Assembly: GCA_964510165.1 (NCBI GenBank)
Contig: CAZEBC010000113.1
Span: forward strand, 1 to 13,204
Direction: 5' to 3'
Origin: an uncultured bacterium
Lineage (GTDB): Bacteria > Abyssobacteria > SURF-5
DNA length: 13,204 nt
Of the stretch, positions 1 through 13,204 are shown in pieces. Made by a program: the position numbers and the translations under genes. The notes under the pieces are model-generated. The model worked only from the letters and a program-made list of their open reading frames with translations, was not told where the DNA came from and made no database searches. Position 1 is the stretch's first letter. The number at the start of each line of letters is the position of its first letter.

Positions 1-73
1 CAACCCAAGATGCTACCTCATGGCCCCTTTTTTGCACAAGAAATCTTACATTACCGTCAAGGCTTTTCGGGTC

Positions 74-103
74 TTGACAAACCGGAGTTGCAGTTGGTAT
101 TAT
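74..103 (+). promoter_or_regulatory. sigma70-type promoter for tRNA-fMet
   Basis: TTGACA (74-79), 18-bp spacer, extended -10 TGg-TATTAT (95-103), ending 5 nt upstream of the tRNA. Confidence 0.75.
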
Positions 104-108
104 AGGTT

Positions 109-185
<77 letters not shown>

Positions 186-212
186 AAAAGAATAGCTCTC
201 CTTATAGAATAG

Positions 213-291
213 CTCCTCTTCAACGACAAGGCGCCTGCCGAAGGGGAAGCTTCGGACCCAAGACGATTGCACGCCGCAAGAGGGGTTTTTT
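213..291 (+). terminator. structured tRNA trailer / probable intrinsic terminator between the convergent tRNA and iolN-like gene
   Basis: CTCCTCTT (213-220) pairs with AAGAGGGG (278-285), followed by T6 (286-291). Inner hairpin CCGAAG (238-243)/CTTCGG (250-255). Confidence 0.5.
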
Positions 292-363
292 GCGTCCTCG
301 ATATCGCGTGACGCTCGGGGCAATGCGCCCGGCCCTTGTCAGGATAAAACGTTCTTTCTCCAG

Positions 364-1341
364 TCAATACGCCGGCCAGGCGATGCAGTAGATGTGTTTG
401 CCCCCCTTCTTCAATGGACCTTTCAAATAAGCCTTGAGTTCTTCATCCGTGAAACGCTGGGTGACCTCTTCGACGGGCGGCAGCTTTCCGGCAGGCCATT
501 TCTTCATAATGTCGCCGACCAGTTTCTCCATGTAGTCCAGAAGCGCCTCGACGCCGGGAATCGCCTTCTTGCCTTCAGCCAGAGTCGCCTTGCCGACGCA
601 CCCCTCGGGTGTTGCGGACAGTTCGATCGGCCCCAGCCCGGCTTGCGCGTACCAGGGAATCGGCAATTGGTAGACGTTGCCGGCCTTGTCCTGGTGTCCC
701 GGTGGCAGGTATCCCCTCGGCTTGGTGTCCACGGCGTCCTCCATCCGAATCATCTCCGGAAAGAGCGCCAGTGAAAAACTGGTTTCGACCTCGTCGGCGT
801 GGATGAACGGTGTCTCAAAAGGCCCGCCGTGCTCCTTGTCTCTGACCCATTGCGGAATTGCGTAGTACCAATTCAGGTTGACGAACACGCCGGGCACCTG
901 GAACCGCTTGGTGAAGCGATGGATCGCGGTCGGGATCACGTACTCCTGACCGTGGCCATTGAGAAGAATCTGCTTGCGAAAGCCGGCGTTCCAGAACCCG
1001 GCCATGACCTGGGAGATGGTGGCAGTAAAAGTCTCCTCGTCAATCGGGATCGTGCCGGGCATGCCGATGTGGTGGTATGGATGCGAGCCGTACCAGACGG
1101 GTTGCGCGACGGTGCAGCCGACTCTCATCGCCACGGCTTCCGCCATGCGCGTGACGAGGAAGGTGTCTTCTCCATAGCAGGCGTGCGGGCCATGGGCTTC
1201 GGTCGAACCAATGGGGATTATGATCAGGTCGCTTTTCTTGAGCCTCTCCTGCACCTCTTTCATAGTCATATTCTGAAAATAGATGCCGTCGGCCAGGTCC
1301 AGGTGGCCGCCCGCTGGGGGAAGCTTCCATTTCTTCGACAT
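364..1341 (-). CDS. iolN: creatininase-family amidohydrolase, 3-dehydro-scyllo-inosose hydrolase (IolN)-like, 325 aa
   Basis: Creatininase motifs PIGSTEAHG..GED, LNGHG, HADEVETS, PEGCVG. Closely resembles my recollection of Thermotoga IolN (GIYFQ.MTMK...RLK..DLIIIP, HPYHHIGMPGT, GFWN.GFRKQILLNGHGQE, ETPFIHADEVETS). Start moved to ATG 1341 because of AGGAG RBS at 1353-1349. Confidence 0.88.
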   Translation of the reverse strand: MSKKWKLPPAGGHLDLADGIYFQNMTMKEVQERLKKSDLIIIPIGSTEAHGPHACYGEDTFLVTRMAEAVAMRVGCTVAQPVWYGSHPYHHIGMPGTIPIDEETFTATISQVMAGFWNAGFRKQILLNGHGQEYVIPTAIHRFTKRFQVPGVFVNLNWYYAIPQWVRDKEHGGPFETPFIHADEVETSFSLALFPEMIRMEDAVDTKPRGYLPPGHQDKAGNVYQLPIPWYAQAGLGPIELSATPEGCVGKATLAEGKKAIPGVEALLDYMEKLVGDIMKKWPAGKLPPVEEVTQRFTDEELKAYLKGPLKKGGKHIYCIAWPAY

Positions 1342-1407
1342 GGCGATTCTCCTTTCGAGCATTGTTGCTTCACATGCCCACTGCGGCGCTGCGAAGTCGG
1401 ATGCCAC

Positions 1408-1437
1408 ACTATACAATCATGTTCCTCACACCGTCAA
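1408..1437 (-). promoter_or_regulatory. sigma70-type promoter for the iolN-like gene
   Basis: Minus strand TTGACG (1437-1432), 18-bp spacer, TATAGT (1413-1408). Confidence 0.6.
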
Positions 1438-1572
1438 GAGGCGAACGGCGGGAGTTGACCATTTGCCTCTGCCATTTCCCTTGCGGAGTGCGCGTCCTAT
1501 ATAATCATCTTTGCACGAATCACCCGCAGTGTTCGCAACAAAGGCATTCTTCATTGACGAGGAGGCGTCACG

Positions 1573-2631
1573 ATGACCGATAGACTGAGAGTGGGAGTGA
1601 TCGGCTGCGGCGAGATATCGGGGCTTACTACATGGGGCTTTCGCACAGACGAACGTTGCACGATCCATGCGGTTGCCGACCCGAACGCCGAGCGGGTCCA
1701 ACAGCGAGCCGCCGAATGGAAAGCGGAGAAGGTCTACAGCGACTACAGGAAGCTATTGGATGATAAGGCCGTAGACATAGTGATGATAATAACGCCGCAT
1801 GACCTGCACAAGCAAATGGTTGTTGACGCGCTCGAAGCGGGCAAGCACGTCTCCGTCCAGAAACCCATGGCCCGCACCGCTGAGGAATGTGCCGCGATGA
1901 TACAGGCGGCCAAGCGTGCAAAGCGCAAGTTCCAAGTGTTCGAGTGTTATCCTTTCTATCCGCCGGTTGCAAGAGCGAAGGAGTTGATTGATGCGGGCGA
2001 AATCGGCGATGTCTCGATGATCCGATTGCGCACAACGAGCGGTTCGCTTCAGTGCGGCTGGGAGCTGACCTCGACCTCATGGGAATGGAAATTCAACCAG
2101 GAACGAGTCGGCGGCGGCACGATGTTCGATGACATGCACCACAAATACGCGCTCGCGATATTCTTTGGCGGGCCGATAGAGAAAGTGTCGGCATTCATCG
2201 AAAACCCCGGAATGTTTCTCGACACTCCGGCGACCGTCATGTGGAGACACAAAGAAGGCCAGCGCTACGGCATCCTCGACGCGACCTATGCGCCGGAACT
2301 CATAATCGACACAAAATATTATCCGGTCGAAGAGCGGGTGGAGATCACGGGTTCCAAAGGCATAATCTGGGTCACCCGACTGACCGGGGGATTGATGAAG
2401 ATCGCTCCACTGATCATGTACCGCGACGGCAAAACACACTGCTACAACGATATCCCCGCAGAGTGGGAAGACGGATTCATACGGTGCGCGCACCACTTCA
2501 TTGATTGCATTCTTGACGACAAGCCGCCTTATCTCAGCGCCGAGGAGGGAATGCGCGTTGTGCAATTTGGGAGAGCCGTGTATAAGTCTGCCGAAGGGGG
2601 CACGCCGATATCACCCGATTCTATCACCTAA
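1573..2631 (+). CDS. Gfo/Idh/MocA-family NAD(P)-dependent oxidoreductase, 352 aa
   Basis: Rossmann motif LRVGVIGCGEI, TPHDLH, AGKHVSVQKPM (EKP variant), GGG..FDDMHH. GGAGG RBS at 1561-1565. Confidence 0.93.
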   Translation: MTDRLRVGVIGCGEISGLTTWGFRTDERCTIHAVADPNAERVQQRAAEWKAEKVYSDYRKLLDDKAVDIVMIITPHDLHKQMVVDALEAGKHVSVQKPMARTAEECAAMIQAAKRAKRKFQVFECYPFYPPVARAKELIDAGEIGDVSMIRLRTTSGSLQCGWELTSTSWEWKFNQERVGGGTMFDDMHHKYALAIFFGGPIEKVSAFIENPGMFLDTPATVMWRHKEGQRYGILDATYAPELIIDTKYYPVEERVEITGSKGIIWVTRLTGGLMKIAPLIMYRDGKTHCYNDIPAEWEDGFIRCAHHFIDCILDDKPPYLSAEEGMRVVQFGRAVYKSAEGGTPISPDSIT

Positions 2632-2650
2632 TTATCCTCGCGCCCTGTGG

Positions 2651-3352
2651 TCACCACAAGATTCGCGGCGCCTGATACCTGCGGCGCAGGGCCGCGTTGT
2701 GCTCGGAGGAGCCGTCGAGGTTGGCGCTCTTGAAGACGGGCGGCTCAACATTGTTCTTCACCAGCCACTCGACCGCAGCTATCATAACTTCGTTCATGAG
2801 GTAGGCTCCGGTGATGGTGGACGTTGGTCCGACCGGGATGTTAAGACCCTGCACCGTAACGCAGGCGTCGCCCGGGTCGCCCATATTGTCGAGGACAACA
2901 TCGGCAAGCTCGAACAGCCGTTTTCCACTAGAATGCCGCGAGGAAACCGACCGGGAATGCGCGAGCGAAGTGATCGCTACCACCTTCAGCCCCTTTTCAC
3001 GCGCCGCCATCGCAACCTCGATCGGGAGCGCATTGCGGCCCGAATTGGAGATGACGATCATGCAATCGCGCTCGCTCAGCCTGACCGGCGCCAGAAGCGC
3101 CCGCCCATAGCCCTCGACCTTTTCGGCCAGCCCCCTGAGCGGGTCAATAATCGCGCTCACGGGCGCAAGCCCCCCGGCACGCCCGTGCGCCTCGTATGCG
3201 ATTGCCGCCGAATGACCGCTTCCGAAAGTGTGCGTCAATCCGCCTTGTGCTATCGTTTCGCCCACGATGGCGCCGGCCTCACCAATGGCCCCAGCCTGCG
3301 TGGCGCTGATGCGCGAGAGGAGTTCAGTGATCTTGTCGTAATAGAGGGTCAT
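2651..3352 (-). CDS. SIS-domain sugar isomerase-like protein (UPF0309-type), 233 aa
   Basis: FGSGHS, VISNSGRN..PIEVA, VVAITS, SRHSSGKRL..LADVVLDN..GDA, GPTST, PPVFKSANLDG motifs. GGAG RBS upstream. Confidence 0.9.
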   Translation of the reverse strand: MTLYYDKITELLSRISATQAGAIGEAGAIVGETIAQGGLTHTFGSGHSAAIAYEAHGRAGGLAPVSAIIDPLRGLAEKVEGYGRALLAPVRLSERDCMIVISNSGRNALPIEVAMAAREKGLKVVAITSLAHSRSVSSRHSSGKRLFELADVVLDNMGDPGDACVTVQGLNIPVGPTSTITGAYLMNEVMIAAVEWLVKNNVEPPVFKSANLDGSSEHNAALRRRYQAPRILW

Positions 3353-3367
3353 TCCGAGTTCTCCGAC

Positions 3368-3402
3368 GTTCAGAGTTCAGGGTTTAGCGTTCAGGGTTTT
3401 CT
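3368..3402. repeat. degenerate heptamer tandem repeat (GTTCAGG-like x5)
   Basis: GTTCAGA GTTCAGG GTTTAGC GTTCAGG GTTTTCT, spanning the stop codon of the BadF-family gene. Confidence 0.6.
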
Positions 3403-4340
3403 CCCCCTCGGGCCAGGTTGGAGATAACTTTCTGGTTCAGCGCCACTCCCATCGAACCCAGTCCGATGATGAGCGCCCCTGTTACCGGCTGGAGCGCGGG
3501 AACGAAAGCGTTTGCGCGCGGGCGGATCGCTTTCAGTTCGGAGACAAGCGCATCGGTCACTCTGCCCGCTCTGCGAAGGACTCCCCCGGATAATACTATC
3601 GGAAATCTCTCATCGGCGCCAAACAACCCTTCCAAAACGGGCGTCGCGAGCAGGCGAAGTCGCCGCGCACAATCATCGAGTATCTCTCCGGCGACTGCGT
3701 CCCCCGCTTCCGCCGCCTCGAAGACAAGCGGCGCCAGCCCCGCAACGACATGCCGCTTTATGGGCGGCCTGTAAAGCCGTTTCTTGAGGTCGGCGAAGCT
3801 GTACAGTTCGAGGCGCGCCAGTATCATATCTCCGAGGCGGGTTACGGGGCCTCGGCTTTCATGGGCTCTCACAGCCGCCGCAATGGCTTCCCTCGCGATG
3901 TCATAGCCGCTTCCTTCATCCCCGACAAGGGGACCCCAGCCTCCCACATGCTTTTCCTCGCCCCGCGAGTTGCGCCCCTTGCAGAACGAGCCGGTACCCG
4001 ACAGCATCACCACACCCCAGCCGTTCGTCTTGTGCAATCCGGCTGCCAGAACCGTCTCGAACTCATCCGTCGGGATGACTCTCCGCGCGCGACCCGAAAC
4101 CATGTCCAAAGCGGCCCGGGGCAGATGCGGGCCGGAGACCACCGCAACTTCCACTTTGGGCCGAAACGATCTCAGGGCTCCCGAGACGGCCGTCTCGATT
4201 GACTTCAGCGCAACCCTCTGAGGAACGAAATTCCTGTTTGCGGGACCACCCAGACCCGTGGAGAGAATGCGACCGTTCTCGTCACCGAGCAGGCAGCGTG
4301 TGCGGGTTCCCCCCGAATCGATTCCAAGCACGTAGCGCAT
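3384..4340 (-). CDS. BadF/BadG/BcrA/BcrD-family ATPase, N-acetylglucosamine kinase-like sugar kinase, 318 aa
   Basis: ASKHA motifs LGIDSGGTRT, LSGTGS, VGGWGPLVGDEGSGYDIA, A..GD.VA..IL, VLSGGVL. Confidence 0.9.
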   Translation of the reverse strand: MRYVLGIDSGGTRTRCLLGDENGRILSTGLGGPANRNFVPQRVALKSIETAVSGALRSFRPKVEVAVVSGPHLPRAALDMVSGRARRVIPTDEFETVLAAGLHKTNGWGVVMLSGTGSFCKGRNSRGEEKHVGGWGPLVGDEGSGYDIAREAIAAAVRAHESRGPVTRLGDMILARLELYSFADLKKRLYRPPIKRHVVAGLAPLVFEAAEAGDAVAGEILDDCARRLRLLATPVLEGLFGADERFPIVLSGGVLRRAGRVTDALVSELKAIRPRANAFVPALQPVTGALIIGLGSMGVALNQKVISNLARGGENPER

Positions 4341-4442
4341 AACCGATCGCCGATATCATGGAGCCGAAACGCAATATTATAAGTCTAATGTTATCAATCT
4401 ATTAAATGATACCAAGCTTAAGACATAATCGAACTCGCCTGT

Positions 4443-4471
4443 TTGACAAAAGCCCCATGCGATGGTATAAT
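4443..4471 (+). promoter_or_regulatory. perfect-consensus sigma70 promoter with extended -10
   Basis: TTGACA (4443-4448), 17-bp spacer, TG at 4463-4464, TATAAT (4466-4471). Confidence 0.85.
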
Positions 4472-4530
4472 TACAATGGTTTATTAGGCGTAACAACTGG
4501 CACGGCGCGGCTTACTGACGGAGTGATACC

Positions 4531-5142
4531 GTGGGTGTAAGGCTTGAAATGACACATCTGCTTGTGCCCCCGACAAGGCTTGAATCTACAGAGCCTGGCA
4601 CAGCGCCTTTTCAAGCGTCCGACGGAGCCCCTTCACAGAAAGAAGCGCCAGTCCAACGCACCCATTCTGACGAACCCCCCCAGGCTGCTCCTGAGAGTAA
4701 AGACAATACCGCATCTCCCAGCCGGGTTGCCGACGCGACGAGCCGCTCGGCCGACCGACCCGTCGAGGCCCGCTCTTCCCTCGATGCGCATGAAGCTCCG
4801 CTCGAGGGGCCGGGAGATTTCCGCTATCTCGTTGCCGCTCAGTCGGCCCAAGAGCGCGACCTCGAAACCCGCTACGACCAACTGAAGAACCGGCTTGAAA
4901 GCGCCAGCCGCCGTTTGGAATTCGCCGACTCAGCCATGACGCGAATCGACGCGCGCCTGGAGCGCGTGCGCCTGCAATATGACCTTGATATGGTCGCGAG
5001 CCAGATCAGAAGGCTTCGCCTCGAACGCGCATTTCAGGAAGCGTTTGGCGGCGCTGGCCGGCCCGAAACCGCTCAGCCCGGGGCGGACCCGGCGCAGTCA
5101 CGCGCCTCCGACAGTTCGGCCATCCTTAATTTGTTGGCTTGA
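4531..5142 (+). CDS. hypothetical protein, 203 aa, with a disordered P/A/S-rich N-half and a predicted coiled-coil C-half
   Basis: GTG start with GGAG RBS (4520-4523) downstream of a consensus promoter. Longest ORF in the gap. No family recognised. Confidence 0.6.
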   Translation: MGVRLEMTHLLVPPTRLESTEPGTAPFQASDGAPSQKEAPVQRTHSDEPPQAAPESKDNTASPSRVADATSRSADRPVEARSSLDAHEAPLEGPGDFRYLVAAQSAQERDLETRYDQLKNRLESASRRLEFADSAMTRIDARLERVRLQYDLDMVASQIRRLRLERAFQEAFGGAGRPETAQPGADPAQSRASDSSAILNLLA

Positions 5143-5169
5143 GCGTCTTGAACTGACCCGATGTGATGT

Positions 5170-5199
5170 AGTGTATCGTGGAATGCGGCTTATTGTCAA
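5170..5199 (-). promoter_or_regulatory. candidate sigma70 promoter firing antisense to the orphan ORF
   Basis: Minus strand TTGACA (5199-5194), 18-bp spacer, TACACT (5175-5170). Confidence 0.45.
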
Positions 5200-5209
5200 T
5201 CGGATGGCT

Positions 5210-5320
5210 AAAAAGACAAAGGGGAACCTGCCCCGTGAAATCTTCTGAAGTCCCGTTTATCTCGTCGCAGTGGACGGTCGGCTCATTGCCGGATATAATA
5301 AACGGGGCAGGTTCTCCCTT
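5210..5320 (-). terminator. long inverted repeat plus U-tract, probable 3' domain and terminator of the sigma54 transcript
   Basis: Perfect 13-bp IR GAACCTGCCCCGT (5224-5236)/ACGGGGCAGGTTC (5302-5314), extendable by AAGGG/CCCTT. On the minus strand it is followed by TTTGTCTTTTT (5220-5210). Confidence 0.6.
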
Positions 5321-5504
5321 CGCCTTAGGAGGGGATTAGGAACTTAATAAGTCCGGAGCAGGTGGGAACCCATGTCCCATTTCATCAATTGCCCTCTCAA
5401 AACGCTTGTCTCCCAGCAAGTGTTTTAAATGGGTCTCCACCTGCTCATAATAATTAGTACCTAACGCTCCCCTCATCAATCTGGTCGTGGCCAATCCTCT
5501 TGCT
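5210..5504 (-). ncRNA. candidate sigma54-dependent structured small RNA (about 290 nt), family unknown
   Basis: Bounded by a sigma54 promoter (predicted +1 near 5504) and a stem plus U-tract. Nested stems 5329-5340/5460-5474, 5356-5373/5429-5446 and 5399-5408/5417-5426. No convincing RBS-led ORF. Confidence 0.6.
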
Positions 5505-5514
5505 ATTATGGTAG

Positions 5515-5531
5515 AGCAAGCCATGTGCCAA
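5515..5531 (-). promoter_or_regulatory. sigma54 (RpoN) -24/-12 promoter
   Basis: Minus strand TTGGCACATGGCTTGCT matches TGGCAC-N5-TTGCW with exact GG-N10-GC spacing, about 365 bp downstream of an NtrC-family gene in the same orientation. Confidence 0.85.
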
Positions 5532-5651
5532 CATCCCGAAGACCATCCCTGATATGCACGTAAGTCTTGTCCAATCAAATGGATAGCCAGCAACAATCCA
5601 TGCGTCATTTCGGCGATATCATGGAAATCTGGTGCGAATCCCGGTCAATGC

Positions 5652-5749
5652 CGTAACGATATATTACGTGCGATTCCCGGGTATTACGATGCAATATGCT
5701 GATAATATTTGATTTAGAGATTTTTTGAGGGCTGTAACGGAACAATACG
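5652..5749. promoter_or_regulatory. candidate enhancer (UAS) sites for a sigma54 activator plus an IHF-like site
   Basis: Palindrome CGTAA-N7-TTACG (5652-5668) and related TGTAACGGAACAATACG (5733-5749). Minus-strand TATCAGCATATTG (5704-5692) fits WATCARNNNNTTR. Confidence 0.45.
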
Positions 5750-5793
5750 GGCGAGCCATCATGCGGAGAGAGACGCGCCACATTCATGTTGAA

Positions 5794-5824
5794 CCTCTCC
5801 CTCTGGGAGAGGACACGGTGAGGG
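5794..5824. repeat. REP-like palindromic element (CCTCTCCC-TCT-GGGAGAGG...GGTGAGGG type)
   Basis: 8-bp perfect stem 5794-5801/5805-5812 followed by GGTGAGGG. Resembles the widespread CCCTCACCC..CCCTCTCCC...GGGAGAGGG extragenic palindrome. Confidence 0.5.
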
Positions 5825-5895
5825 ATTGTATCTCGGCGGCGCTGCGCTGGGTCTCGGCGCTTCGGCCTCTGCGCCCCGCACCAGAACGGTCTTGG

Positions 5896-7299
5896 TTATC
5901 TTCGGCTCGGCGCACGGCCGCTCGGCGCACGGCCGCGAGTCCCCGGGCCACGGTCAGGGATACCGTACTTCACCATCATCCTGTAGAGCTTGGGACGGCT
6001 GACTCCCAACGTTTCGGCGGCTTTCGTCTTATTTCCGTCGTTACTCTCCAGAACGAGGTGAATGTGTCGTTTCTCGATCTCGCTGAGCGACAGCGATGAA
6101 AGCGGCGGGGAATCATCTCCGGATTGCATGCTGTTGAGGGTAGGGATTTCGCGGAGGGTGATGAGGCTGTTGTTGGCCAGGATTATGGCTCGCTCGATGA
6201 CATTGGATAGCTCGCGCACGTTTCCGGGCCAGTCGTATTCGGAGAATGCCTCGAGCACTTCAGAGGTCACCCGGATCTTGTCGGCATTGGGATGGCGCGA
6301 GGAGCGGATGAAGTGTTCGACGAGGAGCGGGATGTCGCTCTTCCTGTTGCGCAGGGGAGGAAGGGAGATCGTCATGACGTTGATGCGGTAGTAAAGGTCC
6401 TCCCGGAAGGCGCCCTTGGCGATTTCCTCGCGCAGTTTCTTGTTGGTTGCGCAGATGACGCGCACGTCCACCTCCAGCTCCTTGATATCTCCCACCCGCC
6501 GAAACCTGCCCGTCTCAAGAACGCGGAGCAGTTTAACCTGCATGCCGGGACTCATCTCGCTGATCTCGTCAATGAACAGAGTGCCGGAATCGGCGATCTC
6601 AAACAGGCCGCTCTTGCGTTTCACCGCTCCCGTGAATGCGCCCTTTTCGTGTCCGAACAGTTCACTCTCGAGCAGCGTTTCCGGCATGGCGCCGCAATTT
6701 ATGACAACGAAAGGATCGTTGCATCTGGAGCTTGCCTGATGGATGGAATTGGCGACGATTTCCTTTCCGGTCCCGCTTTCGCCCTCGATCAGCACGGTCG
6801 AGTCGGTCGGCGCCACCTTGCTAATAAGGGCCTTGACATGCTGCATGGAGGAGCTTTCGCCCACAAGGTTAACCGCGCGAGCCCTGAGCTGCAGCTCATG
6901 ATGGCGGTTCACCTTTTCGGCGAGCTTCTTCTTCTCGTAGGCCTTCTGAACGACCGCCTGCAGTTCCGAGAGCTGACACGGTTTGGTGAGAAAGTCGTAT
7001 GCCCCGAGCTTCATCGCTTCGATGGCGACATCGACCGTGGCCTGACCAGTGAGGAATATGACCTCGGTGTGGGGCTGATACTCCCTTGTCTTCTTGAATA
7101 GCTCGATGCCATCCATGCCCGGCATGCGCAGGTCGAGGATCCCCACATCGAAAGGCTCAGACTTGATCTTCACAAGCGCCTCTTCACCGGTAGCGGCAAG
7201 CGCGACATGGTCGCCGACCATGCTGAAGCGCTCGCTCAAGAGATTGCGGTAGGCTTCCTCGTCGTCAACTATAAGCAGTCGAATCGGCCTCTTCTTCAT
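5896..7299 (-). CDS. NtrC/AtoC-family sigma54-dependent response regulator (REC-AAA+-Fis HTH), 467 aa
   Basis: REC (IVDDE, ILDLRMP, FLTKP), Walker [24 protein letters not shown], Walker [49 protein letters not shown] overlap with the upstream kinase. Confidence 0.97.
5905..5936. repeat. perfect 15-bp tandem duplication in the C-terminal tail of the NtrC-family gene
   Basis: GCTCGGCGCACGGCC twice (5905-5919, 5920-5934) plus GC, encoding [10 protein letters not shown]. Confidence 0.85.
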
Positions 7300-8819
7300 A
7301 TCGGCTCTCGTGTAACGGGGAGGCGGACCGTAAAGGTTGACCCGGCGCCCGGTTTGCTCACAACGGAGATGGTTCCGTTCATCCGCTGCACAATGCCGAA
7401 GCAGATGGAAAGCCCCAGGCCCGTTCCCCTGCCAATGGGTTTGGTGGTGAAGAACGGATCGAATATCTTCTTGAGGTTGTCCTCGGAGATTCCAACGCCG
7501 TCATCGGCGACCTCGATGACAACCGTATCGCCCTGCGCCCTGATCCTGACCTTGATCGTTCCATTCCTCTCGACCGCGTCAAGCGCGTTATTAACAAGGT
7601 TGAGAAACACCTGCTCCAACTGATGAGGGTCGGCGGTCAGACACGGCACTCCCTCGGCCACCTCCGTGACAATCGTCTTCCGTTCGGCAAGGGCGCGGTT
7701 CTCAACCAGAGCGATCGTCTCCTCGACCAGCTTGGGGAGGTTTACGCGTGACTCGTGTATCTCGCTCCGTCTCGCGAAATTCAGCAGCCCCTGCGTAATC
7801 TTCTTGCAGCGGAGCGCCTGTTCCCTGATTGTCTCGATATGTTTCGACAGCCGCTTTGCTATCTCCTCCGGGCTCTCGTGACTGTTCTCGACCAGGAACT
7901 GGAGCTGCTCGGCAGTTCCGCTGATAATGCCAACGGGGTTGTTTATCTCGTGGGCCACCCCGGCGGCCAGTTCCCCAATGGCCGCCATCTTGCTCGCCTG
8001 CAGCAGTTGCGCCTCCATCTGCTTTCGCTCGGTTATGTCGCGCGCAATCCCGAGCACGCCCACAACGGCCGCTTCCCTCCGGATAGGCGTAATGTTGATG
8101 AGCACATTGACAACTCTGCCGTCAATGCCGAGTATCGCCGATTCAAAGCGCTGCGGATTCCCCTTGAGCGCTTCCTGAAAATGTCGCTCGTTCTTGGCGA
8201 GGTCGCGTTTGACCACGTACCCCGAATAATGCGCGCGTTCAGAGGGAATGAATCGGTAGCCGGTGGTTTCTTGCCCCAATTTATTCAGAAAGGTGATGTA
8301 TCCGTTCGTATCGAGTATGTAGATAATGTCGTTCGCATTGTCGATGAGACTTTGAAGGTATTCCTCCGTCTGGGCGACCTGCGACTCGAGCGCGCGCTTC
8401 TCGGTGATATCGTTTGCGAGGGCGATTACTCCCTTGACGTGCCTGCCCTCAAGTATGGGTATGCCGGTGAGGTTGAACACGATATCGTTGCCGAAACGGT
8501 CTTTGCGCTTCAGGTTCGCGCGAGAGCGGATATCACGCTCCTTCATGACCTCGCAGAACGCCTTCGCGATCCCCATCTCCGCAAGGTCAGGATTAAGCTC
8601 AAAGATGTTGTGCCCGACCAGTTCGTCTGGTTCGAACTGGTAATGATCGAGTATATATTTGTTGACGCGCAGGATGGTGCCCTTCACGTCGAGCACATAC
8701 ACGCCCACGTCTATGCAGTCGATCACCGCGGCAAACAGCTCACCAATGCTATTGCTAGAGTTCAAGGGCAACATCGCCCGCCGCCGCGCGGTCACTCTTG
8801 ATTTCGACGGTTTCGACAT
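7296..8819 (-). CDS. cytoplasmic PAS-PAS sensor histidine kinase (NtrB-like), about 507 aa
   Basis: Two PAS/PAC repeats ending DITEK and DITERK, H-box AGVAHEINNP, N-box QVFLNLVNNA, DDGVG, FDPFFTTK, GTGLGL. Start placed at ATG 8819 just after the upstream stop; the exact start is uncertain. Confidence 0.93.
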   Translation of the reverse strand: MSKPSKSRVTARRRAMLPLNSSNSIGELFAAVIDCIDVGVYVLDVKGTILRVNKYILDHYQFEPDELVGHNIFELNPDLAEMGIAKAFCEVMKERDIRSRANLKRKDRFGNDIVFNLTGIPILEGRHVKGVIALANDITEKRALESQVAQTEEYLQSLIDNANDIIYILDTNGYITFLNKLGQETTGYRFIPSERAHYSGYVVKRDLAKNERHFQEALKGNPQRFESAILGIDGRVVNVLINITPIRREAAVVGVLGIARDITERKQMEAQLLQASKMAAIGELAAGVAHEINNPVGIISGTAEQLQFLVENSHESPEEIAKRLSKHIETIREQALRCKKITQGLLNFARRSEIHESRVNLPKLVEETIALVENRALAERKTIVTEVAEGVPCLTADPHQLEQVFLNLVNNALDAVERNGTIKVRIRAQGDTVVIEVADDGVGISEDNLKKIFDPFFTTKPIGRGTGLGLSICFGIVQRMNGTISVVSKPGAGSTFTVRLPVTREPI

Positions 8820-8832
8820 CTTCAGGCTCTCT

Positions 8833-10068
8833 TCACAGCAGGGCGGACTCTTGGTGAAACGGCCCGGGGTCCTTGCGCCTATCGATAGGAAGGGTGAAGA
8901 AAAAGCGCGAGCCTTTCCCCTTCTCGCTTTCGGCCCATATCTCGCCCCCATGCATAAGCACCAGTTTCTTGGCGATGGCCAGACCCAGCCCGCTGCCGGC
9001 ATACGGGGGCGCGGCGGGATCAGCCACTTTGTAAAACTCCGTGAATACCCTGGTGCAGTCTTCCGATGGGAATCCGATGCCCGTGTCGGCCACGCATATC
9101 CGTACCTTGCCGTCGCATTTCACAGCGGTCACATCAATGCGGCCGCCGGGCAAGGTGAATCTGATCGCGTTTGAGAGCAGGTTCTCTACGATGACGGCCA
9201 GCTTCTGGGGGTCGGCATATATCCGACCGGCCTCGGGGGCCACCTCAACGGATATCCGAATCTTTTTCCGCGCCGCTTCCGGCTCGAACAAGCCCGCCGT
9301 CGAGCAGAGGGCCTCCTTCAGAGAAAAATCTGTCATCTCCAAGGGCATCTTGCCGGTGTCTATCTTGAAGACGTCCATGATATTGGCTATGAGCTTTTGG
9401 AGTTCGGCGCCGCTGGCGAGAATGTTGCTGACGTACTTCGCCTGCTTCTCGTTGAGCTTACCCACCAGTTCGTCTTGCATCATCTCGGAAAAACCGATGA
9501 TGACATTGAGCGGAGTGCGCAGCGCATGGCTCATGTTCGCAATGAATTCGTACTTCATGTGGCTGGCTTGCATGAGCTGCGAGGACATGGACTTGAGAAC
9601 CCGCTGCTGAAGCTCGATCTTCTCGGAGGATCGCCTCGCGGTCTGCGACTCACGGGCAAGCTCATCGTAAAGATGCTTTGTCCTCAGCATCGACTTGACT
9701 CTCGTAATCAACTCGGACTTGTCAACGGGCCTGCTCAGAAAATCGTCGGCGCCGACGGCTATCCCCTTCACACGGCTCTCCATATCCTGCAGCGCCGTCA
9801 CCATGATCACGGGGATCGCCCGCGTTTCGGGCCTGCCCTTGATCAGCTTGCACACCTCGAACCCGCTCTTCTTCGGAATCATGATATCGAGCAGGACGAG
9901 GTCCGGCTTGTTGCGGACCACCATCTCGAGCGCCTCCTCGCCGTCGAGGGCCGATTCTATCGCATACCCCTCGCCGTGAAGCTGCGCGGTCAAGAGCTCA
10001 ATGTTGACCGGATCATCCTCGACAATCAAGATGCGGGACCGGGATGGCGGCGCCTTGTCACTGGACAT
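8833..10068 (-). CDS. REC-HisKA-HATPase hybrid kinase with atypical H-box (HALRTP), 411 aa
   Basis: PleD-like N-terminal REC (IVEDD, LLDIMIP, IPVIMVTA), ANMSHALRTPLNVIIGFSE, NLLSNA, DTGIG, GSGLGL. Confidence 0.93.
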   Translation of the reverse strand: MSSDKAPPSRSRILIVEDDPVNIELLTAQLHGEGYAIESALDGEEALEMVVRNKPDLVLLDIMIPKKSGFEVCKLIKGRPETRAIPVIMVTALQDMESRVKGIAVGADDFLSRPVDKSELITRVKSMLRTKHLYDELARESQTARRSSEKIELQQRVLKSMSSQLMQASHMKYEFIANMSHALRTPLNVIIGFSEMMQDELVGKLNEKQAKYVSNILASGAELQKLIANIMDVFKIDTGKMPLEMTDFSLKEALCSTAGLFEPEAARKKIRISVEVAPEAGRIYADPQKLAVIVENLLSNAIRFTLPGGRIDVTAVKCDGKVRICVADTGIGFPSEDCTRVFTEFYKVADPAAPPYAGSGLGLAIAKKLVLMHGGEIWAESEKGKGSRFFFTLPIDRRKDPGPFHQESALL

Positions 10069-10075
10069 GTGCGGT

Positions 10076-10459
10076 TCAACCTTTCTTCGTCTTGGCGATG
10101 AATTTCCCGACAGTCCGCGAAAACTCTCGCGTGTCTATCGGCTTGGATATATAGCCCGTGCAGCCGTGGCTCAGGATTCGTTCCTCGTCACCCTTCATCG
10201 CATGCGCGGTCAGAGCGATGACCGGGATATCCATGGTCTCCGGATTCTCCTTAAGCTTTTTCGTGACCGCTAGTCCGTCCATCCCCGGAAGTTGGACGTC
10301 CATGAGAACCAAGTCCGGATGCTCTCGCACACAGATGTCGAGAGCCTCCTGGCCCGTGGTCGCCGAAAGGACCTCGTAGCCTTGCAGTTTCAGCAGGTCG
10401 ACCGCCAACTCCATGTTCATTGCGTTGTCTTCGACGACGAGGATGCGGGAAGTGACCAT
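10076..10459 (-). CDS. single-domain response regulator, DivK-like, 127 aa
   Basis: ILVVEDNAMNMEL, LMDVQLP, IPVIALTAHAMKGDEERI..GC.GYISKPI, typical of the DivK subfamily. Preceded by GAGG within the upstream gene's 3' end. Confidence 0.93.
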   Translation of the reverse strand: MVTSRILVVEDNAMNMELAVDLLKLQGYEVLSATTGQEALDICVREHPDLVLMDVQLPGMDGLAVTKKLKENPETMDIPVIALTAHAMKGDEERILSHGCTGYISKPIDTREFSRTVGKFIAKTKKG

Positions 10460-10460
10460 C

Positions 10461-12965
10461 TTATACCTCTTCCTTTCTTGTCCTGACGAGACGTTCGACG
10501 CGCTTGACCTCGTCGAGGAAATCGTCCTTTCCGTATTGTCCTTTCTTCGCGATCGCCTCTATCTTGCCATTTAGGGATTGTTTCTCCTGTTCCGTCAGGT
10601 CCTTCGCGGTAACGATGATTATCGGGATGTCCTTGGTGCCGGCCTCCATCTTCAGAAATTCGACCACCTCGAAACCGCTCATGTCGGGCAGGATCAAATC
10701 GAGAAATATCAGGTCCGGCTTTCGCCGCGATGCGTGCTCGATCGCCTGCAGACCGGTATATGCCCTGTCAATAACGAAGGATTGGCCGTCGAGCATCGAG
10801 GCCAATAGGTCAACGAATTTCTCGTCGTCATCCACCACCAACACATTCGCTATTTGGCCGTGAACCGTCGTCTCGCGCAGACGCTCCAGCCGACTCAGCA
10901 ATTCACGGCCCGAGACGGGCTTCACTATATAGTCGGCCGCGCCCATGCTGAACCCCGTTTCTTCATCTTGCAGAACCGAAGTGATTATTACGGGGATGTC
11001 CCGTGTCGTTCCCGATGACTTCAACTCCTGAAGTATCTTCCATCCATCAATATCCGGCAGAATAATGTCCAGAGCGATGATCGCCGGATGCGCCGACTTG
11101 GCCATCTTCAGAGCCTCTTCTCCGGTCCTCGCATGGACCACATTGTAGCCCGCACCTTCCAGATAGGTGGATATCAGTTCGAAGGAGTGAGGGTCATCTT
11201 CGACAACCAGGATCGTTTCCTTGATTTCCTGCCCCCCGGCCTTGCCCAAAACCGCTCCATTGTCCGCAGCTATGGCCGGCTTGCGTTGTTCGGTTATGTC
11301 CTTGTCTGTCAAGGGGATGGTGAAGTAAAAGGCGGCGCCCTTCCCCTTCTCGCTCTCGATCCAGATCGAGCCGTGATGCAGCTCCACAAGCTTCTTGGTG
11401 AGAGCCAGGCCGAGGCCTGTCCCCTCATACTGGCGAGAATAGGAGCCGTCCACCTGCTGGAATTCCTGGAATATGCGCTCGTGGTCCGCCTTGTCCACCC
11501 CGATTCCCGTGTCCCTCACACAGAACTCGGCGTACCGCTTCAGAACCACCTGGTCGCCGTCCGCAATCTCGAAGTCGCCGATGATATCGGTCGTTACCTC
11601 GACCCAGCCTCCAGCGGGCGTGAACTTTATCGCATTGCTGAGGAGGTTGTAGAATATCTGCTTGAATTTCTTGGGGTCCGCCGTCACCGTCACGAGTTTC
11701 GGAGAGAATCGCTCCCGAACCGCTATCTCCTTCTTGGCCGCCAGCCCGCGCGCAAAGTTGGCGATCTCCGCGAGCACTCCCCTCACCGGGAAGGTCTCGA
11801 CATTGACCGACATCTTCCCCGATTCGACCTTTGCCAGGTCAAGGATTTCGTTGATGAGCTGCAAGAGATGTTTACCGCTGACCACCACATTTTGGGCGTA
11901 CTTGATCTGCTTTTCGTTCAGACCTCCAAAGGATTGGTCGCACAGGATTTCCGAAAAGCCGATGATCGCGTTGAGCGGCGTCCGAAGCTCGTGACTCATG
12001 TTCGCCAGAAATTCCGATTTCAGCTTGCTGACCGCCTCGATCTGTTGATTGGTCCGCTGGAGTTCCTCGTTCATGAGGCGCAGCGCCTTCGTGCGTTCCT
12101 CCACCTTCTGTTCGAGGGTCCGGCTGTAATCCTCCAGTTCGGTCCGATATCGCTTCAAGTCCCTGGTCATCTTGTTAAACGACGCACCCAAATCGCCAAT
12201 CTCATCGTTTGTGTTGATGGAAACCAGATGGTCCAGATTTCCGCTGGCCACCCGTTCTGTCGCGTTCACAAGCTGCTGAACCGGATTGACAATGACGCGC
12301 ACCAGAAACACAGTGACGCCAATGGCGAGCAACACCACCATCACGGTCACGGTCAAGATGGTACGGCGCGCTTGATGGATTTCCTCGTTCATCGAATCCA
12401 GCGAGATGCCAACGCGCGCAACGCCGATCCTCTCGGGAACACCCTCCGCCCGCCCCTGCTCGCCCACCGCGAAGATGACCTCCTCCCCCGACAAGAACGG
12501 GGTTCGCTGCGTCATGATGGGAGCCGCGACATCAAACACGGGCGTCCTGGTTTCGTCCCTGGTGTACGAGCGGATATCGAGTGAGGTGACATTGCGGGCC
12601 CACTCGTTCATTTCGTAAGCGGCCGCCGGAGATATGCCTTCTATGTGGTGAGGAAGCTTGGGAGTGCGCGCAAGGATTTCGCCTCGATTGTTATAAATAA
12701 TGCAGTAGGCGACGTCTTTTTCCTTGCTGAGGCCGGCGATGATGCTGTCAAACATGGACGTATTGCCGGTCAGCACGCCATATTCGCTCGCAGAGGCGAC
12801 GTTCCGCCCGAGAACCGCTCCCTTTTCCTTGAGATGTGCGGATATCTCTTGCACCTGCTGCCGCACAAGGAACCACCCGAGCACGGCAGCCGTGATGATC
12901 ACTATGAACGATATGTAGGCGGTTATCTTGAAACGAAGCCCCAGTTTGAGCCTGGGTGGGCGCAT
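10461..12965 (-). CDS. membrane hybrid sensor kinase (TM-extracytoplasmic domain-TM-HAMP-HisKA-HATPase-REC-REC), about 834 aa
   Basis: Two hydrophobic helices, HAMP (DEIGDLGASFNKM), KSEFLANMSHELRTPLNAIIGFSE, NLLSNAIKFT, DTGIG, GTGLGL, two C-terminal REC domains. GGAG RBS at 12980-12977 supports a start at ATG 12965 or TTG 12968. Confidence 0.95.
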   Translation of the reverse strand: MRPPRLKLGLRFKITAYISFIVIITAAVLGWFLVRQQVQEISAHLKEKGAVLGRNVASASEYGVLTGNTSMFDSIIAGLSKEKDVAYCIIYNNRGEILARTPKLPHHIEGISPAAAYEMNEWARNVTSLDIRSYTRDETRTPVFDVAAPIMTQRTPFLSGEEVIFAVGEQGRAEGVPERIGVARVGISLDSMNEEIHQARRTILTVTVMVVLLAIGVTVFLVRVIVNPVQQLVNATERVASGNLDHLVSINTNDEIGDLGASFNKMTRDLKRYRTELEDYSRTLEQKVEERTKALRLMNEELQRTNQQIEAVSKLKSEFLANMSHELRTPLNAIIGFSEILCDQSFGGLNEKQIKYAQNVVVSGKHLLQLINEILDLAKVESGKMSVNVETFPVRGVLAEIANFARGLAAKKEIAVRERFSPKLVTVTADPKKFKQIFYNLLSNAIKFTPAGGWVEVTTDIIGDFEIADGDQVVLKRYAEFCVRDTGIGVDKADHERIFQEFQQVDGSYSRQYEGTGLGLALTKKLVELHHGSIWIESEKGKGAAFYFTIPLTDKDITEQRKPAIAADNGAVLGKAGGQEIKETILVVEDDPHSFELISTYLEGAGYNVVHARTGEEALKMAKSAHPAIIALDIILPDIDGWKILQELKSSGTTRDIPVIITSVLQDEETGFSMGAADYIVKPVSGRELLSRLERLRETTVHGQIANVLVVDDDEKFVDLLASMLDGQSFVIDRAYTGLQAIEHASRRKPDLIFLDLILPDMSGFEVVEFLKMEAGTKDIPIIIVTAKDLTEQEKQSLNGKIEAIAKKGQYGKDDFLDEVKRVERLVRTRKEEV

Positions 12966-13013
12966 CAAACAGTCAACTCCCTCCGCATCCATCGCCACTT
13001 TGGTAGCACAATT

Positions 13014-13042
13014 ATTATACCACGAAACACTATCGCGTTCAA
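13014..13042 (-). promoter_or_regulatory. sigma70 promoter of the signalling operon
   Basis: Minus strand TTGAAC (13042-13037), 17-bp spacer ending TGG, TATAAT (13019-13014). Confidence 0.7.
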
Positions 13043-13106
13043 CCGAAGATTCCGGCAAAAAGCGAGCGTTCTCAACACCCGGAACACCGCCAAAACACAC
13101 GTACGA

Positions 13107-13204
13107 TTATGCGCCCACCTGAAGCCTCTCAGCCAGGAACTGGGGCAGGCCCGCTTTGATGACGGCGCTCATCGCGGCCTGAATATCATAATCCACGCGA
13201 ATGA
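13107..13204 (-). CDS. 3' end of a probable metallophosphoesterase-family protein (partial, runs off the window)
   Basis: Hand translation IRVDYDIQAAMSAVIKAGLPQFLAERLQVGA*, matching the RV.YD...GLP..LA.RL..G C-terminus typical of this family. Confidence 0.7.
   Translation of the reverse strand, partial: IRVDYDIQAAMSAVIKAGLPQFLAERLQVGA

Follow-up and report, generated by a model that had tools for sequence, protein, structure and literature searches.

Small RNAs (sRNAs) that are driven by sigma-54 and encoded beside their own activator form an established kind of regulatory locus. CrcZ, which depends on CbrB and sigma-54, and GlmY, which depends on GlrR and sigma-54, are both encoded next to the activating two-component system. 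In Vibrio, a hybrid-kinase phosphorelay works through the NtrC-type regulator LuxO on sigma-54 promoters, from which the terminated sRNAs Qrr1-5 are made, and the most conserved Qrr sequences lie within stem-loops and are the pairing regions (PMC3730234). NrsZ of Pseudomonas aeruginosa is an RpoN- and NtrC-dependent sRNA encoded downstream of ntrBC (PMC9731577; PMC4253122), and the latter paper describes three similar modules and processing of the RNA. Here, we analysed a stretch of 13,204 nucleotides (nt) from an uncultured bacterium of the candidate phylum Abyssobacteria (SURF-5; assembly GCA_964510165.1, contig CAZEBC010000113.1, positions 1 to 13,204, forward strand), referred to below as the window. 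Downstream of a gene for an NtrC-type activator, its minus strand very likely carries a genuine, independently transcribed structured non-coding RNA, which is probably the regulatory output of the adjacent signalling cascade.

By analogy with these systems, the locus is of the same established kind (Qrr, NrsZ, CrcZ, GlmY). First, it repeats the Qrr design of a hybrid-kinase phosphorelay, an NtrC-type regulator, a sigma-54 promoter and a terminated sRNA, and its proteins score weakly, under the cut-offs, against models of such proteins: the kinases against BarA/LuxQ-type ones and the activator against that of LuxO. However, the RNA has no match to Qrr in sequence or structure, is about three times longer and occurs in one copy per genome, and Qrr has been studied in the context of Hfq, whereas an Hfq domain was found in none of the 11 genomes of our phylum set (Abyssobacteria-like candidate phylum, 77-98% complete), with the control genomes detected. 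Second, the order of activator gene, sigma-54 promoter and sRNA is the same as for NrsZ, but the window RNA has no such internal repeat, no Rfam match and a different phylum as its host. CrcZ and GlmY also show no match to it, and the repeated A-rich motifs of CrcZ are no feature of the window RNA.

Two further groups can be compared. The C-rich sRNAs of Firmicutes (RoxS/RsaE, FsrA) are Hfq-free and pair through C-rich regions with G-rich ribosome-binding sites, and RsaI has both G-rich and C-rich regions (PMC8216469). The window RNA combines an invariant C-rich box with invariant G-rich loops, which would be a likeness of mechanism only; there is no homology, and the Firmicutes RNAs have sigma-A-type promoters, lengths of 100-230 nt and C-runs that are usually repeated in several loops. 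CsrB, RsmY and RsmZ are also structured sRNA outputs of a cascade (BarA/GacS-type), and the window RNA shares with them a GGA in a hairpin loop and a CsrA gene in the genome, but it differs in its chance-level GGA content, in having a sigma-54 instead of a GacA/UvrY-dependent promoter, in a CsrA that is paired with FliW and in the lack of an Rfam match. A full-text literature search found nothing on RNA regulation in this candidate phylum. The locus adds to this little-known group an RNA family with a defined promoter, enhancer, fold and invariant elements, and it places the design of a kinase relay, an NtrC-type activator and a sigma-54 sRNA far outside Proteobacteria. What sets it apart is the lineage, the Hfq-free setting, a very long invariant block and an anti-Shine-Dalgarno-like box.

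A predicted structured RNA of an undescribed family

A sigma-54 promoter, stems P1, P2 and P3 and a terminal inverted repeat, all proposed in a preliminary description made from the letters of the window, were found at the same coordinates in the minus-strand reading (Table 1). The minimum-energy fold of a 300-nt transcript is -115.7 kcal/mol, compared with -87.6 +/- 4.9 for 200 shuffled sequences (z = -5.70; no shuffle as low), which bears out the extensive folding predicted earlier, and P1, P2, P3 and the terminal helix are all recovered in this fold. When Rfam 15, which presumably includes Qrr, NrsZ, CrcZ, GlmY/GlmZ, CsrB/RsmY/RsmZ and 6S, was searched at gathering thresholds, tRNA-Met was the only match over the window. 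At E <= 10, the best match within 5150-5600 reached 14.5 bits against a threshold of 40. This candidate was a C/D-box snoRNA, and it relied on a UGAUGA that is not kept in relatives. Judged by sequence and fold, the RNA matches no curated family and is an undescribed one, in line with the first impression that it was not recognisable.

Table 1 Features of the window, in the order of the predicted transcription unit followed by the neighbouring genes.
Feature	Positions	Strand	Description
Upstream activator site 2 (UAS-2)	5734-5748	minus	distal enhancer-like site; second repeat copy, 81 nt beyond UAS-1, ~235 nt upstream of the predicted start
Upstream activator site 1 (UAS-1)	5653-5667	minus	proximal enhancer-like site GTAATATATCGTTAC; imperfect palindrome, centre ~155 nt upstream of the predicted start
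Sigma-54 promoter	5515-5531	minus	TTGGCAC-N5-TTGCT = TTGGCACATGGCTTGCT; -24 GG, -12 GC; near-consensus
Predicted non-coding RNA	5210-5504	minus	~295 nt; both ends predicted, start ~11-12 nt after the -12 GC, end at the end of the T-tract
P1, 5' strand	5460-5474	minus	GAGGGGA..UUAGG; pairs with CCTAATCCCCTC (5340-5329), the C-rich box, in the window's genome
P2, 5' strand	5429-5446	minus	pairs with 5356-5373
P3 hairpin	5399-5426	minus	AAAACACUUG-CUGGGAGA-CAAGCGUUUU; 5426-5417 with 5408-5399, loop CTGGGAGA
Purine-rich internal loop	5374-5398	minus	GAGAGGGCAAUUGAUGAAAUGGGAC; between P3 and the P2 3' strand; unpaired in minimum-energy folds
P2, 3' strand	5356-5373	minus	pairs with 5429-5446
C-rich box	5326-5340	minus	CCUAAUCCCCUCC(UA); 13 nt identical in 10/10 sequences; anti-Shine-Dalgarno-like
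Terminal helix, 5' strand	5303-5325	minus	22 pairs with 5214-5235
Variable insert in terminal helix	5236-5302	minus	relatives differ in sequence and length, ~30 to ~110 nt
Terminal helix, 3' strand	5214-5235	minus	enters T-tract 5210-5220; intrinsic-terminator-like end
Presumed activator	5896-7299	minus	NtrC-type enhancer-binding protein; Pfam: REC, sigma-54 AAA+, Fis-type helix-turn-helix
PAS kinase	7296-9002	minus	Pfam
Receiver-kinase	8833-10068	minus	Pfam
Single receiver	10076-10459	minus	Pfam
Hybrid HAMP histidine kinase	10461-13100	minus	two receivers; Pfam
Convergent gene	4531-5142	plus	hypothetical, 203 amino acids (aa); N-terminal part low-complexity Pro/Ala/Ser-rich, C-terminal part coiled-coil-like
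Convergent gene promoter	4443-4471	plus	sigma-70-type; perfect TTGACA-17-TATAAT with TG extension
Sugar-metabolism-like cluster	2651-4340; 1573-2631	minus; plus	NagK-like BadF/BcrA-type ATPase, SIS-domain sugar isomerase-type protein, GFO/IDH/MocA oxidoreductase
tRNA-Met (CAT)	109-185	plus	Rfam

The RNA is conserved within one candidate phylum. In a DNA search of 41 genomes, the central 130-150 nt were found at 77-85% identity in eight of the nine further genomes that share the family of the window's genome; the 31 genomes from outside that family gave no match. Searched as an exact word over species-representative genomes, the 32-nt invariant core gave seven loci, all duplicates of known ones, and a metagenome contig contributed one extra copy, which is truncated (L017). 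The core was also turned into a covariance model (R1; 139 positions, 25 pairs), and this matched once each in 9 of the 11 phylum genomes, which indicates a single-copy RNA. As for the two genomes that gave no match, G002 has an orthologous activator (77% identical) on a contig that ends 71 nt after that gene, and G010, a member of another family, lacks an activator ortholog (best match 47% identity). One weak match was obtained among 140 genomes outside the phylum (G020, 27.9 bits), a plain hairpin followed by the C-run UUCCCCUCC; it was rejected because it has neither the 71-nt apical part nor a nearby sigma-54 promoter. Together with the invariant blocks, the covariance model can be used for annotating the family and for scanning metatranscriptomes.

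The core structure, written from the fold of the window, was scored on an alignment of 10 sequences. In the three-helix core, 93% of the cells are paired, compared with 31-55% when the partners are slid by 1-3 columns, and none of 500 shuffles reached the observed covariation score. Because the aligned sequences are close kin, the shuffle figures overstate significance, and more weight should be given to the slid-partner controls and to the range of pair types observed. The 18 positions of P2 in the window comprise 16 Watson-Crick pairs, one G-U pair and one A-C mismatch; across the alignment, double-sided changes occur in 9 of the 16 scored pairs, 89% of the cells being paired, with compensatory examples such as GGUGG/CCACC, GGCGG/CCGCC and AGAUGG/CUAUCU. 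The nine pairs of P3 are 100% paired, seven of them never varying and two changing on one side only, to G-U. For the terminal helix, which was counted in the full-length sequences (L017 was excluded, its contig stopping within the helix), 96% of the cells are paired in 9/9 sequences and six pairs changed on both sides; 26 of 500 shuffles equalled this count of double changes and none the covariation score. The T-rich tail that follows is seen in the alignments and is weaker in L007 and L009.

Two details of the earlier structure were modified. The terminal inverted repeat with its T-tract is present, but the helix, given before as 13 bp, is in fact 22 bp long (5303-5325 with 5214-5235). Similarly, P1 exists at its proposed place in the window but is not family-wide and is found in about half of the relatives only. 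Five of ten minimum-energy folds show the C-rich box paired to the 5' purine run (GAGGGGA or GAGGAGA), weakly in one case. The other five vary: a small hairpin (GUCCUA/UAGGAC) presents the box in its loop in L007 and L017, L004 and L008 leave it mostly single-stranded, and L009 pairs it with a different segment. GAGGG in the internal loop could also form a 5-bp pseudoknot with CCCUC in the box.

A sigma-54 promoter with enhancer-like sites

The promoter lies about 365 nt past the stop of the activator gene. The strict pattern TGGCAY-N5-TTGCW has one match in the window, where 0.03 would be expected (5 of 200 shuffles matched), and 33 occurrences in the 4.17-Mb assembly. It stands upstream of the RNA in all 10 sequences. 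RpoN is encoded in 11/11 phylum genomes, with two rpoN copies in the window's genome. The neighbouring activator is a generic AtoC/NtrC/ZraR/LuxO-like protein below all NCBIfam equivalog cut-offs, and its orthologs (74-82% identity) are located directly upstream of the RNA in eight of the nine other loci, the ninth contig ending first.

A 15-nt imperfect palindrome, GTAAY-N5-YRTTMC, is found at a constant distance from the promoter in 10/10 sequences, starting 147-152 nt before the promoter end. In the window, this site (UAS-1) belongs to a 24-nt direct repeat, of which the other copy is 75% identical at a spacing of 81 nt, and a second site near -230 that matches the pattern was found in two of the nine other sequences. 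We infer from this arrangement that the activator binds the enhancer-like sites. The ten sites were combined into a weight matrix, with which the regions preceding 80 relaxed sigma-54-like sites of the window's genome were scanned. The RNA promoter ranked first (19.6 bits), a ranking that is circular for the window itself, and it was the only one of the 80 with an enhancer score within the range of the orthologs. Since the enhancer motif is so scarce near other sigma-54-like sites, with one borderline case, the neighbouring activator, as far as motif scans can tell, probably has this RNA as its main and perhaps its only direct target. An IHF-like CAA-N4-TTR about 43 nt before the promoter matches in only about 5-6 of the 10 sequences, and therefore we make no claim for IHF.

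The borderline case is a match of 15.4 bits at -73 on contig C177 of the window's genome, G000 (~5266-5355), with GCAATATTTCGTTCC on the opposite strand. The open reading frame (ORF) downstream of that promoter encodes a small zinc-ribbon-like protein with two CxxC pairs, and this gene may be a second regulon member. Full-length matches of sigma-54 activator paralogs at 38-48% identity number dozens per genome in G002 and G010. That one of the dozens of sigma-54 activators in a genome is apparently devoted to an RNA suggests a post-transcriptional layer of signalling.

Transcription and non-regulatory alternatives

In a search of public sequencing runs, 20 were found to share words of the core, of which three are RNA libraries. 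At 80% likeness, each of these three runs, from three studies, gave one contig over the core (180, 207 and 256 nt). With 17-21 differences and three gaps, the contigs come from relatives, and the longest of them reaches 59 nt further 5' and includes the GAGGAGA run of that relative. Assembled contigs give no strand, ends or level, and DNA may be present in such libraries, so we take them as a weak hint of transcription; as they stem from diverged relatives, parts of the window that they leave without cover are uninformative. That the RNA-library support consists of short contigs from relatives only would also fit a conserved DNA or transcriptional element with no function as RNA, or a promoter that is not used. 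However, P2 and the terminal helix, both of them long, have compensatory changes, which argue for selection on RNA pairing and not on duplex DNA, and promoter, enhancer and terminator form one complete transcription unit in 9-10 of the 10 sequences, which makes such an element improbable.

Another possibility is a messenger RNA (mRNA) for a small protein, with a short peptide encoded in the core (LLGDKRFERAI...). An open frame of 17-52 aa does run through the core in all 10 sequences, and tblastn with the 90-aa ORF of the window finds the core of relatives. However, the shared residues merely mirror invariant nucleotides, and the 40 invariant nt include all third-codon positions, which is not the pattern of selection on a protein. 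The N- and C-termini vary in length and sequence with unrelated ends, there is no common start codon or ribosome-binding site, and indels fall within the conserved stretch, where L004 differs in block spacing by +1 and L007 by -2. Between core and C-rich box, five different distances occur among relatives. Neither the 90-aa nor the 60-aa ORF call over the RNA region has a Pfam match, and the promoter lies inside the 90-aa call (5336-5608), as had been pointed out before. On this evidence a peptide product is the least probable of the explanations considered.

The RNA has its own predicted terminator and the next gene is convergent, so it is not the leader of a downstream gene. It could still have a local role in cis, in which the RNA or its terminal hairpin serves the convergent gene as a shared terminator or as antisense to read-through. 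The convergent gene adjoins the RNA in all eight relatives whose contig extends there and has a full-consensus sigma-70-type promoter, and the A-rich 5' strand of the terminal helix is paired with the U-tract, as in two-way terminators. However, the hairpin read on the plus strand is followed by a poor U-run, the RNA is predicted to stop at 5210, short of the convergent gene and its end at 5142, and a terminator needs neither a sigma-54 promoter and enhancer nor a 150-nt conserved, covarying 5' domain with invariant blocks; we therefore consider a purely local role unlikely.

The preliminary description had proposed a stand-alone, sigma-54-driven structured sRNA as the likely output of the adjacent cascade, and had named conservation in relatives and coding potential as checks. 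The promoter is kept in 10/10 sequences, P2 and the terminal helix covary, and no reading frame is conserved; together with the retention of the enhancer and the co-occurrence with the activator, these results support that proposal.

Invariant elements and proposed mode of action

Two blocks of the RNA stand out by their conservation. The first is a 40-nt block, AAAACACUUGCUGGGAGACAAGCGUUUUGAGAGGGCAAU, which comprises P3 and the start of the purine-rich internal loop; two of the 10 sequences have a single change in its P3 5' strand. Within the internal loop, GAGAGGGCAAU is invariant and A-U-R-GGA-S-A nearly so (10/10 sequences). The second is the C-rich box, which is complementary to UAGGAGGGGAUUAGG, a strong Shine-Dalgarno sequence with its flanks, and AGGAG is the enriched word upstream of starts in the window's genome. 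The box probably resembles closely the usual 3' tail of bacterial 16S rRNA; a small-subunit rRNA model found no 16S gene in the window's genome or in five relatives, and a motif for that tail had no match in the 11 genomes. Because the box is invariant while its intramolecular partner varies, selection probably acts on it, judging from the alignment, for a partner outside the RNA.

From these elements a mode of action can be proposed. The upstream multi-kinase relay would phosphorylate the neighbouring NtrC-type activator, which would then bind the GTAAY-N5-YRTTMC sites ~155 nt (and ~235 nt) upstream and open the sigma-54 promoter, and transcription would stop at the long terminal hairpin and U-tract. 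The RNA would act in trans without Hfq, its invariant sequences base-pairing with mRNAs and altering their translation or stability, in the way of Qrr under LuxO and of the C-rich sRNAs RoxS and RsaE where Hfq is not needed; the candidate pairing parts are the anti-Shine-Dalgarno-like C-rich box, with ribosome-binding sites as its partners, and possibly the invariant P3 region. By analogy, the succession of a structured 5' domain, an AU-rich linker, the C-rich box and a terminator resembles the layout of a trans-acting base-pairing sRNA. Transcription, activation by this protein and the whole trans-acting step are what we infer from the sequences, and we give the full proposal, including activator-driven expression and base pairing in trans, a probability of about one half.

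Several points weigh against this proposal. First, transcription and both ends of the RNA are predicted, and the RNA-library contigs are short, belong to relatives and could derive from DNA. Second, no conserved target was found: the target searches stayed within their controls, and none of them turned up a site common to several genomes. When duplexes of the C-rich box were computed with 4239 crude start regions, 51 reached <= -18 kcal/mol, the same number as for the reversed box; shuffled boxes were also compared. Across the phylum, the pattern of the box complement (<= 2 mismatches) occurs at control level, the gene itself aside, and exact k-mers of the complement gave no signal above controls and none shared among genomes. 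For the whole RNA, blastn-short found no complement of more than 15 nt elsewhere in the genome, and the start regions of the neighbouring or cascade genes, examined for a feedback loop, showed no convincing pairing. Third, P1 of the window's minimum-energy fold takes up the whole box, which would therefore need opening. In about half of the sequences the box is single-stranded or part of a loop. Finally, 40 invariant nt in a row would make a long seed, and such a block also fits recognition by a protein.

The last point leads to a protein-sequestering RNA, in which CsrA or another protein would be titrated by the P3 loop CUGGGAGA, the internal loop (GAGAGGGCAAU ... AUGGGAC) and further G-rich stretches, in the manner of CsrB/RsmZ, CrcZ or GlmY. 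CrcZ and GlmY act on proteins, and an invariant block that includes a non-covarying stem is what sequence-specific protein recognition would be expected to give. Of the two invariant GGA, one is in the P3 hairpin loop and the other in the unpaired internal loop ~36 nt away; CsrA is encoded in 10 of the 11 phylum genomes, and the mRNA target searches came up empty. However, the eight GGA, a count given correctly before, are not an enrichment (5.6 +/- 1.9 in 2000 shuffles, 16% of which reach eight), and this chance density offers little support for a CsrA sponge, so that the caution with which the idea had been raised was well placed. Across the 10 sequences there are 5-12 GGA per RNA (1.8-3.5 per 100 nt), only two of them invariant, whereas the GGA density in CsrB/RsmZ is well above that of the window RNA. 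Moreover, the CsrA gene of the window's genome lies directly beside that of FliW, a protein antagonist of CsrA typical of lineages without known Csr sRNAs. CsrA was found in eight of the nine RNA-bearing genomes but not in G007 (91% complete), it is present in G010, which has no RNA, and no Rfam Csr/Rsm family matched. Titration of a protein is thus possible but clearly the less probable of the two trans-acting modes. We rank base pairing with mRNAs first and sequestration of a protein second, with the local, coding and non-functional explanations well behind.

In one genus (g5; L048:1060-1325 and L049), an intergenic element ~200 nt long is conserved upstream of a gene for a ROK-family kinase. 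Directly before the terminator-like hairpin in which it ends, it contains AGGAGGGGAUUAGGAC, a perfect 16-nt complement to the C-rich box. The element has no Rfam match, and it was found neither in other genera nor upstream of the orthologous ROK-kinase gene in the window's genome. There it might serve as a partner or sponge RNA, but being confined to one genus, it cannot explain the whole RNA family. A bolder version of the base-pairing proposal would have a five-protein phosphorelay act directly through this RNA and nothing else, the RNA being a master switch like Qrr in an uncultured subsurface phylum without Hfq. Its action would be dual: its 16S-3'-end-like box would compete for the Shine-Dalgarno sites of a set of genes, its Shine-Dalgarno-like G-rich loops would titrate a protein or a second C-rich RNA, and the g5 element would be a dedicated sponge or partner. 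We regard this version as doubtful and offer it as speculation.

Neighbouring genes and other observations

The order of the upstream signalling genes is repeated in the longer relative loci L010, L013, L014 and L015. On the other side of the RNA, the 203-aa convergent protein has no Pfam or NCBIfam match, and beyond its gene the NagK-like BadF-type ATPase and SIS-domain genes are conserved.

Just 3' of the RNA terminator (5170-5199, minus strand) is a sigma-70-like promoter, TTGACAA-N15-17-GATAGACT/GATACACT. It has the same strand as the RNA and is present in eight of nine loci (window, L002-L004, L006-L009), and nothing conserved was found downstream of it in the nine loci. Transcription from it in the window would enter the convergent gene at its 3' end, in antisense. 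Elsewhere in the window's genome (G000), a dispersed palindromic repeat, CCCTCTCCC-N4-GGGAGAGGGTTGGGGTGAGGG, lies beside long ORFs (C142:6763, C68:15687, C48:19052, C163:142) and looks like a REP-type (repetitive extragenic palindromic) element.

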